Notes under the pieces: model-generated
Database searches by the model: none
What the model was told of the DNA's origin: nothing
Seen by the model: the letters and a program-made list of their open reading frames with translations, nothing else
From: a virus
Taxonomy: Duplodnaviria; Heunggongvirae; Uroviricota; Caudoviricetes
DNA: 11,700 nt
IMG/VR virus record: IMGVR_UViG_2657244940_000002
Coordinates: 1-11,700 of that record
Strand: one strand, 5' to 3'
Shown here: piece after piece, positions 1,721-6,998 of the stretch
How positions within the stretch are numbered: position 1 is the first letter of the stretch
How the letters are laid out: the number at the start of each line of letters is the position of its first letter
Translations under genes and position numbers: made by a program

Positions 1721-4201
1721 TTAAAAATCAGCCTGACTCGGGATCAGTTTTTGTATCGTAGCTGTAACGTATTTTGCCTGGTGACGGGCGTCATCCAGTG
1801 CATTGTGGCGCACGCCTTCGAATGGAATAACGGTTCTGGCATCAAAGTCGATTGTTTTTCCCAGCTCAACGATTGTGCGTACATCGCGATCGTTGTGGTA
1901 GCGCCACGGGCAGGGGATGTCCAGACGTTCGTATGAGGTGCGCAAAATTGCGTTATCGAAAGTCGCATCATTACCCCATACCTGAACGAATTTTTCATCT
2001 GAGTATTCGTTGATGAACTCCCGAAACTGCGAAAGGGCATCCTTCAGTTTTACCTGGTCTGTTAAAATGGCAGCTCTGGCTTCACTGGACTGCTTCAGCC
2101 ACCATTCGATGGTTCCACCGTCAGGAACAGCCCCTGTATTCATTGCGTCAGTCAGACTGATAACGATATAAAATACTGGCCCGATTTCCCCTGTTTGTGG
2201 GTCGAAGAAAACCGCACCAATAACCACGATGGGCGCATTGGTGTTGGTTCCCATTGTTTCAAGGTCGATCATCAAGTGGTACCACACTCTGCTGGTGGAT
2301 GTGATAACGTGATGACCGTTCACCGCAATTAAGGGATCTGCCGTCTCGCCAGTTTCATTATCGCTGGCGTGGTCCTGAGCGCTGCCAGCATTCTCCTTGT
2401 GTGGATGTTCAGCGCCTTCCATTTCCTCCGGATCATTTTCCTGAACTTCAACCTGATTCTCTTCATTGAATGTTTCCTGGTATGTTGCGTCGCCCATCAC
2501 CGCGCCACAATCAGGGCAGTTGCCGCCGCCGGTCTGACCGCAGGCGGTGCAGATCTTTTCCGGTTCCTGTTGCACTACTGGTTCAGGTTGTTTCGTTTCT
2601 GGCTCATTTTGTAACGCATTTGGGCTGTTTTGTTCCGCTTTCTGGCCGTTCTGTTCCGTTTCTTGCTGGTTCTGGTTCACAGAATCGCGGGTTTCCATCC
2701 CCTTCACCCATTTCGGATCATTCGGATCGCTAATTCCTGCAACAAATTCACCACGTGATACTGCAAGCAGTTCATCGGCGTCAGGCTGGCTGATATTGGC
2801 TGCCTGCATAATGTTGTTTACTTCGTCAGCGGTAACTTTTACCGGCCCTGGTTGTGCGGTCGTGTCAGATGCACCAGTATTTTGTTGTGAACCTGAGTAT
2901 GTACTGTTTTTGCGGACGAAATATTCTTCTTTCGTGATTTCAGTAGCCCCGGCAGCCAGTGCCTTATCCAGACCAGAAAGTTTGTTTGCGCGACCGTATT
3001 TTTCGCCATCCTTGTCGGTGAAGAGGAAGTAGAACGGCCCCTCACGCTCTACAGATGGTTCGACTTCCACTTTGCATTCGGTTTTTTCGTTGTCCGGAAT
3101 TGCCGTTTCCACTGCATCAGTTTCTGGTACTGGCGACGAGAGAGTATCAGTTGCGATCTGATTTGTTCCTTCATCTTCAAACACGCCCTTTGTAGTCAGG
3201 TATTCAGTAATGTATTTGTTCAGTGCCACAGGGTCTTTGTGAATGTCGATCGGACGCTCACGGACAAGGCCAAAAATAGTCTGGCGGTCGTAGCGAAGGG
3301 CATCAGGCTGTTTGCGCATTGATGCTGAGATACGCTTCCAGTCTTCGCGGTCGTTGTTGATAACTTCATTTTTTGCCCAGCGATGGATGCTGCCGTCAAT
3401 GTTTCCGGCATCAATGTCACCAGGCCACAGAGCGTAGGCCAGTTCATCATCCAGTGTTTTCCATGTCTGCTTATATTCGCGACGAATGACTGCAGTGACA
3501 GGGGAGATATTTTCTGCTGAGTTTTCAGTGTGCTGTCGGTTGACTCTGGCGCGGGCGAGATCAACAGCAGACGTGTATTTTCCGGTTTCCTTGCGTTCAC
3601 CTTCGCGACGTTTTTTCCAGATGCGCATCTCTGCCTGAATTTCGGGCCATTTAGCTCCAGGCTTACATTTATGCTTAACCCACCCGATGGCATGCAACTT
3701 AAGTTCTGGATACATGGCGTTAACTTCTGGCATTTTCATCAACGCTTCAACGATATGTCCGTCGAATGTTGCCATGTCTTCCTGCAACAGTTCCTGTGCA
3801 CTAATCACCATATCAACGGTGATGTTTTCACATGTGTCGAACTTAACCATGACAGCGTTCTGTACTTCAGGGGCCAGCTTGTCAAAAGTGACGTTCATCG
3901 GATCTGATTCAGTCTCAACCGGGACAAAGGAAGCTGACTCCTCATCCCAGCGGTTTTCCTGCATATATTCAGCATCCCAGGAATCGAGGGCAGGGCGGGG
4001 TATACCGGGTTTATCCTCGCAAACAAGAAATTTATAAGCGCAGTCCTGAGCAGCCGGATAATGTTCCAGGAATTGCCAGTGAAATTTTGCGCGGGCGCGA
4101 CGTTCATCACCGGCTTCAATGGCAGTGGCTACAGCGACTGCACCTTCTTCCTTTATTGCCTGTTCGTCCGGAATGGCGGCGCAAATAAAGACTTTACTCA
4201 T
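1721..4201 (-). CDS. Large phage exonuclease with C-terminal DEDDh (DnaQ-like) 3'-5' exonuclease domain
   Basis: 826-aa ORF with GAGG about 11 nt upstream of the ATG. C-terminal ~190 aa (nt 1724-2284) carry the three DEDDh motifs: MIDLETMG (Exo I), WGNDATFDN (Exo II), HNALDDARHQA (Exo III). Central Cx2C-x11-Cx2C zinc ribbon (CTACGQTGGGNCPDCG, nt ~2506-2551) flanked by acidic Q/E/P-rich linkers. It occupies the exo/recE slot of lambdoid prophages. Confidence 0.85.
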   Translation of the reverse strand: MSKVFICAAIPDEQAIKEEGAVAVATAIEAGDERRARAKFHWQFLEHYPAAQDCAYKFLVCEDKPGIPRPALDSWDAEYMQENRWDEESASFVPVETESDPMNVTFDKLAPEVQNAVMVKFDTCENITVDMVISAQELLQEDMATFDGHIVEALMKMPEVNAMYPELKLHAIGWVKHKCKPGAKWPEIQAEMRIWKKRREGERKETGKYTSAVDLARARVNRQHTENSAENISPVTAVIRREYKQTWKTLDDELAYALWPGDIDAGNIDGSIHRWAKNEVINNDREDWKRISASMRKQPDALRYDRQTIFGLVRERPIDIHKDPVALNKYITEYLTTKGVFEDEGTNQIATDTLSSPVPETDAVETAIPDNEKTECKVEVEPSVEREGPFYFLFTDKDGEKYGRANKLSGLDKALAAGATEITKEEYFVRKNSTYSGSQQNTGASDTTAQPGPVKVTADEVNNIMQAANISQPDADELLAVSRGEFVAGISDPNDPKWVKGMETRDSVNQNQQETEQNGQKAEQNSPNALQNEPETKQPEPVVQQEPEKICTACGQTGGGNCPDCGAVMGDATYQETFNEENQVEVQENDPEEMEGAEHPHKENAGSAQDHASDNETGETADPLIAVNGHHVITSTSRVWYHLMIDLETMGTNTNAPIVVIGAVFFDPQTGEIGPVFYIVISLTDAMNTGAVPDGGTIEWWLKQSSEARAAILTDQVKLKDALSQFREFINEYSDEKFVQVWGNDATFDNAILRTSYERLDIPCPWRYHNDRDVRTIVELGKTIDFDARTVIPFEGVRHNALDDARHQAKYVTATIQKLIPSQADF

Positions 4202-4281: not shown

Positions 4282-4485
4282 TTACGGTGCTGTTTTAAGT
4301 CCTGCCGGGATTTCGTTATTATCCATGTGAATAACTTTATCGACCGGATAGCAGTTACCGGGAATTTTTTGTTCTGCTGCGGCAGCCATGCATTCTTTCA
4401 TTGAACCGTAAATGTCAATAACCATGTCAACAGGCTCGCCAGTATTAAGAAAAACAGTCAGAGTGAGGGCAATAGTAGTATTCAT
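4282..4485 (-). CDS. ydfD: YdfD-like small membrane (lysis-type) protein
   Basis: 67-aa ORF starting at the internal ATG (MNTTIALTLTVFLNTGEPV…) with a hydrophobic N-terminal segment. Its ATG overlaps the dicB stop as ATGA. Synteny dicB-ydfD matches Qin prophage. The longer track ORF (to 4539) would overlap dicB. Confidence 0.6.
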   Translation of the reverse strand: MNTTIALTLTVFLNTGEPVDMVIDIYGSMKECMAAAAEQKIPGNCYPVDKVIHMDNNEIPAGLKTAP

Positions 4486-4670
4486 TGCCAGTATCCTTTT
4501 TGCATCGGGCGTAAACGTGCCAGCATTGAAAGAATGCATATTTTATTTAATAGCTCCCGTTCGTGTTTTCTCTTATTAATGGCATCTTCAGTAAATACAG
4601 GGTTACTGATTCTGACACCAATTTCAAAACAACCTTCAGACGTATTGACGTTTGGTAATAACGTTTCCAT
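4482..4670 (-). CDS. dicB: Cell-division inhibitor DicB
   Basis: 62-aa product METLLPNVNTSEGCFEIGVRISNPVFTEDAINKRKHERELLNKICILSMLARLRPMQKGYWQ closely matches my recollection of E. coli K-12 DicB (62 aa). GAGG lies 8 nt upstream of the ATG at 4670. The 94-aa track ORF is an upstream extension with no RBS. Confidence 0.8.
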   Translation of the reverse strand: METLLPNVNTSEGCFEIGVRISNPVFTEDAINKRKHERELLNKICILSMLARLRPMQKGYWQ

Positions 4671-4853
4671 TATCGCGTCCTCAACAATGAATTTTGTGAT
4701 GCGGTGCCTGGTGCCTCCAGGTGACGTTAACCAGTTAATAATTAACGCCGGATACAGAGAACCCACCCATAAGAACCAATACGGAAGTCAACTGGCCTTT
4801 TTAACTGTTCCGCGTGCGCTGAGCCGCATTCACCGCATCACAAAATTCACTTT

Positions 4854-4916
4854 AAAAGGGGCGGGTATCATGGGAAAAACAAAACGGATACCCGCCAAAA
4901 GGTAATCAACATGGGT
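4854..4916 (-). ncRNA. dicF: DicF-like small RNA (divergent homolog) with intrinsic terminator
   Basis: Minus-strand sequence …CCATGTTGATTACCTTTTGGCGGGTATCCGTTTTGTTTTTCCCATGATACCCGCCCCTTTT, about 175 nt upstream of dicB. It has a 10-bp stem (GGCGGGTATC/GATACCCGCC) followed by CCTTTT. The TTTGGCGG(G)TATC…GTTTT…CCGCCC(C)TTTT skeleton resembles my recollection of K-12 DicF, but the 5' and loop regions differ. Exact ends are uncertain. Confidence 0.45.
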
Positions 4917-5326
4917 TGTTGCAGCGGGGTTGTCACTCAGGCGTATGGTCAACCTGACAACCCGGTGGACATTTGCGAGGAACGGAGAACCCCCGCCATA
5001 CTTACCGCCGCGCCATTTCGCGGAGTGCCACAACCGGAAGCGCACGGTCGACGAAAATTTAACGACAGGCTATCTATGAACCAGCAACCTCGCCGTGCGC
5101 TTTCGCGTTATGCTCTGACTTTTCAGAGAAATATCCTTTCAGTAAACTGTCAGTGCCGGATGCTCACCCGTGTCCGGCGCACACACTCCACCTCACCCGT
5201 GGAGAACTCCTTAATTACCAACCCTCAGGAGGGTGAATGTTAAAATCAACGCTTATTGCTAAATGCCTTTATCAAAATCGCATGGTAAGCAGCATTTCAA
5301 TAGGCGAATCTGTAGTTAAAAGTATT

Positions 5327-5352
5327 TTCGAAGAGTACTTTCGAAGAGTACT
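5327..5352. repeat. Perfect 13-bp tandem duplication (TTCGAAGAGTACT x2)
   Basis: Read directly: …AGTATT TTCGAAGAGTACT TTCGAAGAGTACT TTTC…. Each unit contains the palindromes TTCGAA and AGTACT. It sits in AT-rich DNA downstream of the 135-aa cargo ORF. Confidence 0.8.
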
Positions 5353-5460
5353 TTTCTGGGCGTGATTTTAATAAATGGAATACCAAATTACCGCCAGCAG
5401 TTTCAACGCGTATTCTGAAAGCAACTGAAAGAGCAAGTACAATTCGCGTTAACTATTTCA

Positions 5461-5868
5461 TTAAAGATTTGTGGGATCTTTGATATCCACAGAGCCTAAA
5501 GTATGTGCATATGGATGTGCTATTGTGCGCCCCTGTAAATTTGCATCGTTTTCTAAATCTTTTGATTTCAACAGAACATCAGCAAGACTCTGAATCATGC
5601 AGAGATAATCAAAAACAGTTGCCGTTTCTGTTCTGATTGCTGAAATAACATGACCATTCAGGCAAACAGAAATTACCCGTTCATCAATATCGTTTTTCTG
5701 TTTTTGATTATCAGAACCATATAGCCCTGAAAAAGCATTGCGCACATTACGAACCATATTATCGATGGTTTCTTTTTTGGTGTATGCCGGGTCAATTTTC
5801 ACCAGACTATCACCGAGTGTCGTTGCAGCAATTATCTGGATTTCTTTTGGTAAATCTTTAAATTCCAT
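5461..5868 (-). CDS. Hypothetical protein, AT-rich cargo (moron-like) gene inside the dicB operon
   Basis: 135-aa ORF (MEFKDLPKEIQIIAATTLGDSLVK…) with GAGG 7 nt upstream of the ATG. It starts 22 nt after the ydfC-like stop on the same strand. The local sequence is markedly more AT-rich than its flanks. No motif I recognise, and no predicted transmembrane segment. Confidence 0.7.
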   Translation of the reverse strand: MEFKDLPKEIQIIAATTLGDSLVKIDPAYTKKETIDNMVRNVRNAFSGLYGSDNQKQKNDIDERVISVCLNGHVISAIRTETATVFDYLCMIQSLADVLLKSKDLENDANLQGRTIAHPYAHTLGSVDIKDPTNL

Positions 5869-5890: not shown

Positions 5891-6109
5891 TTAACGTGGG
5901 TATGTAATCATTCTGGCAATGCTTAATGCCGCTGCTTTTTCCAGATTGGTGATATCCTGCTCCAGAGCGGACAGATTTTCAGCCTGCTTAGCCCTGGCTT
6001 CATTGGCCCATTTCAGGTCCTGCGCAGCCTTAATTTTCTGGTGCATCCACTCATAAAGTTCATCATCGGTATAGTCTGGCGCGATGATGACGGGTTCTCG
6101 TTTCTGCAT
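5891..6109 (-). CDS. ydfC: YdfC-like small protein (dicB operon)
   Basis: 72-aa ORF with GAGGAA 7 nt upstream of the ATG, in the position of ydfC (dicA-ydfA-ydfB-ydfC order as in Qin). Predicted helical/coiled-coil C-terminus. Confidence 0.65.
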   Translation of the reverse strand: MQKREPVIIAPDYTDDELYEWMHQKIKAAQDLKWANEARAKQAENLSALEQDITNLEKAAALSIARMITYPR

Positions 6110-6565: not shown

Positions 6566-6599
6566 CCAAAAAGATAACGCATTGATTGCGTTATCTTTT
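6566..6599 (-). terminator. Intrinsic terminator at the 3' end of dicA
   Basis: Minus strand: CAAAAGATAACGCA-ATCAA-TGCGTTATC-TTTTTGG, a 9-11 bp stem, 5-nt loop and U-tract. It overlaps the dicA stop codon and sits between dicA and the downstream operon promoter. The plus-strand reading also ends in a T-rich tail, so it may act bidirectionally. Confidence 0.45.
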
Positions 6600-6998
6600 G
6601 TTTGTTCGTTGACGGGCTTTTAATAACTCTTCAAAGAGTTTGTTGAAATTTTTTACTCGGGCGCGCATCTCGGTGAGCTGAGCATCCTGTTCTGATTCAG
6701 GCAATGCATTAAAAAGCTCAAGGAGCTCATGTTCTTTGGGGGATAGAGCAACTGGCTCCTCAATAGGTGGTGATGGCTGCTTGTCTTCATCGCCAAATAG
6801 AATCCATGTTGGCGAGCACTGCAGTACTTTGCTGAGGGCAAAAAGATTCTTTCCTGTAGGTTCGCTATCATCCCGCTCCCATTGTGAAACCGATACGTGA
6901 GAAATTTTCAGGGCTTTAGCAAGAGACCTTTGGGTGTATTTGAGGTTTTTTCGGCGATATCTAATGCGTTCGCCAATGGTTAAATTTTTTGTATCCAT
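6591..6998 (-). CDS. dicA: Prophage repressor DicA (XRE-family HTH, P22 C2-like)
   Basis: 135-aa ORF with an N-terminal HTH (…YTQRSLAKALKISHVSVSQWERD…). It closely matches my recollection of K-12 DicA (same length). It is divergent from a cro-like gene, with palindromic operators in the intergenic region. Confidence 0.85.
   Translation of the reverse strand: MDTKNLTIGERIRYRRKNLKYTQRSLAKALKISHVSVSQWERDDSEPTGKNLFALSKVLQCSPTWILFGDEDKQPSPPIEEPVALSPKEHELLELFNALPESEQDAQLTEMRARVKNFNKLFEELLKARQRTNKR

Follow-up and report, generated by a model that had tools for sequence, protein, structure and literature searches.

The DNA analysed here (the window, 11,700 nucleotides of IMG/VR record IMGVR_UViG_2657244940_000002) is a lambdoid prophage integrated beside potC, as indicated by its open reading frame (ORF) listing, by Pfam and by annotated near-identical Escherichia coli records. 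The focus is on positions 4925-5236, which form the untranslated spacer in an early-left prophage operon of the dicBF type, and on an RNA domain at 4918-5034 that probably controls events at the adjacent DicF-type terminator. The operon, whose layout is taken from annotated relatives and Pfam, lies on the minus strand and consists of a dicA-like repressor (6591-6998), ydfA, ydfB, ydfC (5891-6109, minus strand), a cargo gene of 135 amino acids (5461-5868, minus strand; PHROG 1363, function unknown, no Pfam match), the spacer, a small RNA with its terminator, dicB (4482-4670, minus strand), a DUF1482 gene, an exonuclease gene of 826 amino acids, xis and int. An earlier note on this DNA, made from the letters alone, had described the spacer as a GC-rich, structured noncoding stretch on the operon transcript. 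The location agrees with that description, being on the minus strand between the 135-amino-acid cargo gene and the small RNA in the slot that DicF occupies in relatives.

DicF is among the oldest known bacterial small RNAs. About four of five complete E. coli genomes have the dicF operon, and its 260-550-nt untranslated stretch has been treated as plain spacer. The region upstream of dicF is described merely as a long untranslated region (PMC5069750, PMC9438474). A blastn search found the stretch in 4429 of 5426 complete E. coli genomes. Its homologue is the ydfC-dicF spacer in prophage Qin of E. coli K-12, to which window positions 4925-5223 align with 92% identity; relative to K-12, the cargo gene and a small plus-strand ORF are inserted between ydfC and the spacer. 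The promoter-distal ~100 nt (4925-5023) also match the 'dicF-like region' of phages P1 and P7 with 77-79% identity, while the flanks are unrelated.

On comparative evidence, window positions 5034-4918 of the minus strand are a discrete conserved RNA domain of ~117 nt. In the predicted fold, a junction with three hairpins, P1, P2 and P3, is closed by a helix termed P0, and the P3 loop pairs with the junction between P1 and P2 in a 6-bp pseudoknot. Model R1 of the core domain matches 4918-5034 of the minus strand with 133.9 bits (E 5e-40), its sole match in the window, and covers 4915-5042 when flanks are included. The 5' arm of P0, GUUGUGGC (5027-5034, minus strand), pairs with the 3' arm GCUGCAAC (4918-4925, minus strand; variants GCUACAAC, GCCACAAC and ACCACAAC). 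Three pairs of this helix covary, and the inner pair is C-G 61 times, U-A 6 times and U-G 6 times. The start at 4925 given in the earlier note omits 7 nt of the 3' arm, which reaches 4918.

Inside P0, hairpin P1 (CCGCG-AAAUGG-CGCGG; 5008-5023, minus strand) is almost invariant, being 96.8% paired with no informative covariation; its version in phage P1 reads CCGCG-ACAGG-CGCGG. The junction CGGUAA follows (5002-5007, minus strand) and leads into the 5' strand of the pseudoknot, GUAUGG (4996-5001, minus strand), whose partner CCAUAC lies in the P3 loop at 4943-4948. This helix is 99.3% paired, with one pair that is U-A in 69 sequences, U-G in 4 and C-G in 3, and phage P1 pairs GCAUGG with CCAUGC. 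P2 is a variable hairpin (4976-4995, minus strand), in the window CGGGG...CCUCG with a UCC-rich loop, and three of its pairs are changed on both sides. It occurs in 42 sequence variants, most of which fold as a hairpin, with several single-copy variants folding otherwise or partly; stems include CGGGG/CCCCG, CUGGGG/CUCCAG, CAGGGG/CCCCUG, CAGGUG/CACCUG and CUGGG/CCCAG. P3 is an inverted repeat, GGGUUGUCA/UGACAACCC, with 9 bp and a 19-nt loop (4955-4963 with 4927-4935, minus strand), and one of its pairs is U-A in 70 sequences and C-G, a compensatory change, in the 6 from P1/P7. It is the same perfect 9-bp hairpin that the earlier note had reported as GGGTTGTCA/TGACAACCC. RNAfold of the isolated domain recovers P0 to P3. 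The 'dicF-like region' of phage P1 is a misc_feature that overlaps the P3 hairpin, the linker behind the domain and the terminator. Sequence similarity upstream of dicF was already implicit in that annotation.

The comparison draws on 120 IMG/VR loci from a motif scan together with annotated loci, which reduce to 72-77 distinct sequences. In the model-based alignment of 77 sequences, standard pairs fill 95.8% of pair cells; shifting the 3' partners by 1-3 columns lowers this to 33-57%. Changes on both sides are seen for nine pairs, a count reached in one of 500 shuffles, and 28 extra pair types occur, a count reached in none of the 500. A MAFFT alignment agrees on the pairing. P0, P2, P3 and the pseudoknot all show compensatory or G-U-tolerant changes, which leaves hairpin P1 as the only one of the five helices without any. 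Read on the opposite strand, the frequent G-U pairs become A-C mismatches, so that the operon-sense, minus-strand RNA is the folded molecule. The spacer thus does contain a conserved structured RNA, and the lack of covariation that would have refuted the earlier note's reading is not what the homologues show. The invariance of the P3 loop is partly imposed by the search pattern, as loci found by a leader pattern carry the loop variants GGCUGACC and GGUUGGCC. A fourth state (a purine) at the covarying pseudoknot position was sought in a viral scan, where none of 34 loci was genuine. When a 15-base pattern was used on genome contigs, 119 of 120 loci were chance matches, the exception being the Escherichia albertii locus L022.

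The GC content is 0.57-0.59 at 4900-5124 compared with 0.37 at 5200-5800. Folding energy of the region is modestly below that of shuffled sequences (z = -2.5 for the minus and -3.2 for the plus strand), and for the isolated core domain z is -0.6. With thermodynamics this modest, the case for structure rests on the comparative data and not on folding energy alone.

A scan of Rfam 15 places no family over the domain at the gathering level, the models including DicF (RF00039), C4 (RF01695), isrK (RF01394) and the riboswitch classes. At E<=10 the only overlap with 4918-5236 is a mascRNA match of 14.9 bits, which is at chance level. The homologues in K-12 and phage P1 and at two further loci are likewise blank over the domain, and the same scans find K-12 DicF and the phage P1 tRNAs alongside. 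The rest of the window is likewise without a gathering-level match, and the dicB leader gives a sub-threshold one to STnc100. In the literature searched, which did not cover older papers on dicF and the P1 genome, nothing was found that describes the fold, its pseudoknot or the domain's modular presence and absence.

Downstream of the domain on the minus strand, a linker (4897-4917) and a small RNA fill positions 4854-4917. The terminator is a perfect 10-bp stem (4860-4869 with 4887-4896) followed by CCUUUU. The K-12 DicF precursor, the 3' untranslated region (3'UTR) of ydfC in the dicBF operon, is the same region; the window small RNA differs from DicF. The Rfam DicF model has no match in the window even at E<=10, whereas K-12 scores 76.7 bits, so that the neighbour called a DicF-like RNA in the earlier note is a different small RNA, with its own terminator, in the slot of DicF. 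With the upstream domain constant, the slot appears to hold a family of swapped seeds.

The same note had suggested that the spacer could be a processing platform for RNase III or RNase E. No perfect duplex of the ~20 bp looked for as an RNase III substrate lies inside 4925-5236, where the longest helix is 13 nt with a mismatch. The likely substrate is instead a perfect 19-bp long-range duplex in the dicB leader, downstream of the terminator (4831-4849 with 4688-4706, minus strand), which encloses 124 nt. This leader also gives the sub-threshold STnc100 match (33.5 bits, E 4.7e-5, gathering score 47). The duplex is likely an RNase III site giving a longer DicF-type 3' end, since its position past the terminator fits the published 72-nt DicF end (PMC5069750). 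An analogous 15-bp duplex precedes the first ORF (orf39) in the cdtI phage (L285, ~3678-3770). As for RNase E, the K-12 cleavage that generates the DicF 5' end falls, by alignment, in the linker after the domain (PMC5069750), outside the coordinates that the note had given.

The domain is found in lambdoid prophages of the Qin-like and cdtI/Stx2c-like types, as well as in phage P1, where it lies at the 5' end of the ban operon. In every lineage a strong intrinsic terminator follows it by 19-41 nt. At least 10 variants of small RNA and terminator stand behind it, including the DicF, window, cdtI/Stx2c and P1 types; with so many variants following one domain, conservation is stronger in the domain than in the small RNA. 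In cdtI and Stx2c phages the domain lies in the pL leader, the order being cI with a terminator, the promoter, ~280 nt, the domain, a terminator, the 15-bp duplex and the first ORF. The cdtI-type pL is near consensus (TTGACA-16-CATAAT, 11 of 12 matches). For phage P1, the model match begins ~17 nt, and hairpin P1 ~33 nt, after the transcription start deduced from the annotated -10 of the C1-controlled Pban, and the domain is followed by the terminator, two tRNA genes, an STnc100-like leader and tciA.

The STnc100-like leader of phage P1 (L004, 135-254, minus strand), upstream of tciA, scores 33.4 bits, which is sub-threshold. The lambdoid module is thus complete in phage P1, with its two halves, domain plus terminator on one side and leader on the other, split by two tRNA genes, plp and upl. 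A blastn search of phage and plasmid collections with the core and its P1 version gave just lambdoid or P1/P7-like elements of Escherichia, Shigella, Salmonella and Klebsiella as relatives. The exception is 'Actinobacillus phage vB_Apl-pPE4' (L005, PP818812.1, 1476-1613), which carries the domain, a window-type small RNA, kil, a dicA-like repressor and ydaT. Its module is 84-93% identical and E. coli-like, and the assignment to the host Actinobacillus pleuropneumoniae or the purity of the isolate may need checking.

Loci that lack the domain were recovered by an independent scan for the conserved sequence of terminator plus leader rather than for the domain. These core-less loci are mostly Rac-like (ydaF, sieB, kil) and have a 5-bp mini-hairpin at the P0 position. 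Locus L262 is a clean deletion of the domain in a window-type spacer. Three phages that encode N, the protein antiterminator family sought here with Pfam N_peptide and tblastn, are without the full domain, namely POCJ13, phiSTEC1589 and L250, and keep the small RNA and terminator; POCJ13 retains just the last ~40 nt of the domain, and phiSTEC1589 and L250 have none of it and carry the mini-hairpin. N_peptide matches the N protein of POCJ13, and tblastn with two N families detected N solely at the core-less loci L247, L287 and L250. Strict exclusivity of N and domain, a rule that was considered, is only partly borne out, as Rac-like phages are without both. One core-less dicB-type locus (L263, 2972-3160, minus strand) has isrK (64.8 bits) and C4 antisense RNA (79 bits) just past its DicF-like RNA and STnc100-like leader, so an immI-type RNA module of phage P1 lies within the same operon.

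The reading that is tentatively preferred, and for which the chances are judged to be somewhat less than even, is that the domain may be a cis-acting leader RNA promoting read-through of the adjacent terminator. It would fold on the nascent transcript as RNA polymerase arrives at the terminator and would lower termination in cis, unaided in the manner of put RNAs or with the help of a host factor. Polymerases that start at the early promoter would then run on into dicB/kil, exo, xis and int, or in phage P1 into the tRNAs, the tci genes and ban, and the fraction that still terminates would give the DicF-type small RNA.

Several observations point in this direction. In three genome architectures (Qin-like, cdtI/Stx2c-like and P1), with no N found, the domain stands after an early promoter and ahead of the first strong terminator, and N-encoding relatives keep the terminator and have lost the domain. 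When the K-12 operon is driven by Plac at its native site in place of its own promoter, the resulting phenotypes are DicB-dependent and DicF is undetectable by Northern blot (PMC5069750, PMC6832061), which suggests that most polymerases pass the DicF terminator in its native context. The intact operon yields little mature DicF while DicB is expressed (PMC5069750), a result that speaks for control of read-through and against a platform dedicated to DicF processing.

Antiterminators made of RNA only are known in N-less lambdoid phages, from put of HK022 and from the annotation of HK639, and this precedent also favours read-through control. The put RNA is ~70 nt long, consists of two stem-loops arranged in a V and promotes terminator read-through in cis with no need of phage proteins; mutations such as Y75N in the zinc-binding domain of the RNA polymerase beta' subunit (rpoC) block it. 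In HK022, put is an RNA-only antiterminator of an N-less lambdoid phage (PMC9378689). Like the domain, the put elements (putL and putR of HK022, putL-like in HK639) are nascent, cis-acting structured RNAs of an N-less lambdoid early operon that lie between the early promoter and the first terminators, and this same location, with no N found, is seen for the cdtI type, phage P1 and the Qin type. HK639 has a single annotated putL-like element of 126 nt, in the left operon only, which resembles the domain in size and in copy number. Unlike the domain, put consists of two or three serial stem-loops (PMC9378689), and the HK639 element folds as three, whereas the domain is a closed multi-helix junction with a pseudoknot. 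A model of 72 domain sequences reaches at most 6.3 bits in the early region of HK022 and at most 7.2 bits in HK639, with no model match at the putL-like RNA of the latter, where the local alignment score is within that of shuffled sequences.

The N leader of lambda (pL, nutL, an RNase III hairpin, N) offers a second comparison, as it too has a structured RNA signal and then a long RNase III-sensitive hairpin before the first ORF. It differs in that no N-family protein was detected together with the domain and that N-encoding relatives have lost the domain. The Pfam N_peptide model has no match in YdfA or YdfC of the window or in orf39 or orf38 of cdtI. Binding of the domain by an N-like protein (YdfC or cdtI orf39) was rejected as a candidate, there being no N family match and YdfC not being arginine-rich. 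A trans-acting antisense RNA like C4 of P1 or CI of P4 was also rejected, given that the window holds no complementary target.

A number of points weigh against read-through control. About 23% of the loci with the same terminator and leader are without the domain, which implies that the domain is not needed for read-through in general. The association with the lack of N rests on just two independent N lineages, and most of the core-less loci are Rac-like phages, in which two N queries found no N either. For the terminator stem, whose sequence varies by lineage, no conserved antiterminator partner in a mutually exclusive pairing was found, and put RNAs show no sequence or architectural similarity to the domain. 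The window domain lies ~1.5 kb from the operon promoter and not adjacent to it. The covariance model finds a single copy of the domain per locus, with none elsewhere in the window or in the rightward operon. The family is narrow, being confined to phages of Enterobacteriaceae; its sequences are closely related, and several of the covariations may each stem from a single event.

A bolder version of read-through control, regarded as rather unlikely, is that the domain could be a new structural class of antiterminator, RNA-only or assisted by a host factor and unrelated to put, which is portable among N-less lambdoid prophages and the ban operon of P1 and decides between small RNA and continued transcription into the genes for division inhibition, recombination and excision. 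As a conserved pseudoknotted structure in this spacer, the domain offers a mutable handle on how N-less lambdoid prophages and the ban operon of P1 pass their first terminator and on whether phages hold further classes of RNA that modify RNA polymerase besides put. It is also a handle on what sets the ratio of DicF-type small RNA to DicB/Kil, which matters for cell division, phage exclusion and virulence regulation in enterohaemorrhagic E. coli (EHEC). The domain is common to phage P1 and is swapped in and out among prophage lineages.

Among the alternatives, the one that survives best, although it too is considered an unlikely account, is that the domain may be a scaffold for small-RNA biogenesis, in which the structure closed by P0 insulates the small RNA from the mRNA upstream and exposes the AU/CA-rich linker, flanked by stable structures, as a single strand for a precise RNase E cut that frees the DicF-type RNA. 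The constant 19-41 nt between the domain and the terminator hairpin would fit such a role, as would the published RNase E 5' end of K-12 DicF within the linker (PMC5069750) and the classification of DicF as a processed small RNA, from a 3'UTR or an operon interior (PMC9438474). Relatives without the core still have a 5-bp hairpin where P0 would be, so that a stem there is the common denominator. That same hairpin, however, evidently suffices in the Rac-like phages, and a 100-nt pseudoknotted structure with invariant loops exceeds the need. In the P1 and cdtI types, moreover, the primary transcript has the domain close to its 5' end, just 19-25 nt of linker and a small RNA unrelated to DicF; DicF itself cannot be detected when the chromosomal operon is intact (PMC5069750). 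Small RNAs released from operon transcripts by RNase E, such as the 3'UTR-derived MicL (PMC9438474), likewise have stable structures flanking the cleavage site. The upstream domain differs from these in being far larger and better conserved than the small RNA, and in being present also where no upstream mRNA needs removal (P1, cdtI). Even if the domain were merely a processing scaffold, it would be a new RNA family for annotation and would clear spurious hypothetical proteins from phage records.

Less probable still is an autonomous RNA, either a ligand- or protein-binding aptamer that gates the early operon like a riboswitch or the body of a stable RNA of ~170-190 nt (domain, linker and terminator) that sequesters or recruits a host factor. 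The unpaired CGGUAAG, the P3 loop GGUUGACCAU.CGC and ACACC are highly conserved across lineages with unrelated flanks, although the loop conservation is in part an artefact of the search pattern. A junction and pseudoknot right before a terminator are the typical anatomy of a transcriptional riboswitch, in which a conserved fold lies directly upstream of an intrinsic terminator, and in phage P1 the promoter, domain and terminator would yield a primary transcript of ~170 nt. No known aptamer class in Rfam matches, however, and no conserved alternative between terminator and antiterminator was found. The sole alternative pairing seen, between the 5' arm of P0 (GGUUGUG) and an upstream CA(U/C)AAC, might act as a switch but leaves the terminator stem uninvolved. 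The window also lacks any target complementary to the loops.

It is quite improbable that the domain has no function of its own and is a GC-rich remnant or insertion hitch-hiking in a mosaic spacer, with hairpins that at most keep the stretch folded, for instance against loading of Rho. The presence or absence of the domain at one exact site bounded by the inverted repeats of the P0 arms would fit this, as would the clean deletions in L262, L133 and L126/L281 and the high identity among E. coli copies, which is compatible with recent spread by recombination. On the other hand, P1/P7 retain compensatory and G-U-tolerant changes at only 77% identity, a sign of selection on the RNA fold; no copy of the domain is seen apart from a terminator, and each locus has a single copy with no target-site duplications.

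A protein-coding gene on the plus strand, the 110-amino-acid ORF at 4911-5243, is the least probable explanation by far: it begins with ATG, overlaps the next plus-strand ORF by 7 nt and is annotated as a hypothetical protein in several GenBank phage records, but it has no Pfam match and a marginal PHROG match (phrog_3651, E 0.0016, 18 residues), RefSeq has no annotation at the stretch in E. coli, and substitutions track RNA pairs of the opposite strand. The antisense frame is free of stops across the core in just 64 of 118 distinct homologous contexts. The segment from hairpin P1 through the end of P3 ranges from 89 to 95 nt among homologues (91 nt in 59, 92 nt in 26), and near-identical copies differ in length by 1 nt. 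The length differences and interrupted frames indicate that no reading frame is conserved, the 118 contexts showing neither a conserved open frame nor indels in multiples of three. The earlier note's view of the stretch as noncoding, with no convincing ORF, thus stands, as no conserved frame appears in the homologues.

Upstream of the domain, the hairpins at 5035-5204 are, judging from their distribution among relatives, lineage-specific accessory structure that is partly dispensable, and they probably keep the long untranslated stretch folded. The earlier note had read the whole region as one element, and all of its hairpins are present; of these, the 9-bp hairpin P3 alone belongs to the deeply conserved domain, while the hairpin with 13-nt arms is kept among lambdoid relatives and those with GCCGGA and CTCCAC arms are lineage-specific. 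The one with 13-nt arms, H_d (5035-5105, minus strand), is an inverted repeat with 13-nt arms CGAAAGCGCACGG/CCGUGCGCUUCCG and a variable 45-nt interior, kept in 28 lambdoid relatives with almost no covariation. It had been noted as CGCACGG…CCGTGCG and has the larger arms CGGAAGCGCACGG/CCGTGCGCTTTCG (5035-5047 with 5093-5105), with 12 of 13 positions paired. The Rac-like arms of H_d, GAAGGCGCA/UGCGCCUCC, carry a compensatory change from A-U to G-C, seen only against Rac-like sequences.

The 5' arm of P0, GGUUGUG (5027-5034), has its alternative partner, CAUAAC in the window and CACAAC in relatives, at 5106-5111, where the pairing would lengthen H_d. RNAfold of the whole spacer favours this upstream partner, which may be a switch or incidental. 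Next to it stands a small hairpin from the RNAalifold consensus, CUCUGA-AAAG-UCAGAG (5113-5128, minus strand), with a compensatory pair that is C-G 19 times and U-A 3 times. H_b (5155-5178, minus strand) consists of GCCGGA, a 12-nt loop and UCCGGC, its arms lying at 5155-5160 and 5173-5178, and is conserved in sequence in 28 lambdoid relatives with no covariation. H_a (CUCCAC-GGGUGAG-GUGGAG; 5186-5204, minus strand) has its arms at 5186-5191 and 5199-5204, and in other lineages a different hairpin, GACCAC...GUGGUC, is found there.

The duplicated plus-strand motif of the earlier note, CTCACCCGTG, is indeed present twice (5163-5172 and 5192-5201), and it has mediated natural deletions: in L126 (5622-5833) and L281 (12600-12811), H_a and H_b are half-deleted by recombination between the two CACGGGUGA repeats, which are this motif. 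In L133 (1634-1770), H_d and the 5' arm of P0 are deleted through two ACGCGAAA repeats. L126, L281 and L133 are natural deletion variants usable for functional tests. In some spacers (L248, ~5580-5630; L127, ~1810-1850; other Rac-like or L127-like ones) an H-type pseudoknot replaces H_a to H_c. It reads ACCACC-N3-GCCCGG-N-GGUGGU-GAAAUAAAA-CCGGGC, with an A-rich third loop; its second stem covaries (GCCUG/CAGGC), and it has no match in Rfam.

On the promoter-proximal side, the spacer adjoins the small plus-strand ORF at 5237-5365, which is antisense to the operon and has a strong Shine-Dalgarno sequence, GGAGGGTGAATG. A plus-strand promoter for this ORF inside the region was considered and rejected, as no promoter-like site is present. 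A 13-bp tandem duplication (~5343-5355) shortens the ORF to 42 amino acids, and relatives have the intact protein of 77 amino acids (PHROG 10348, function unknown).

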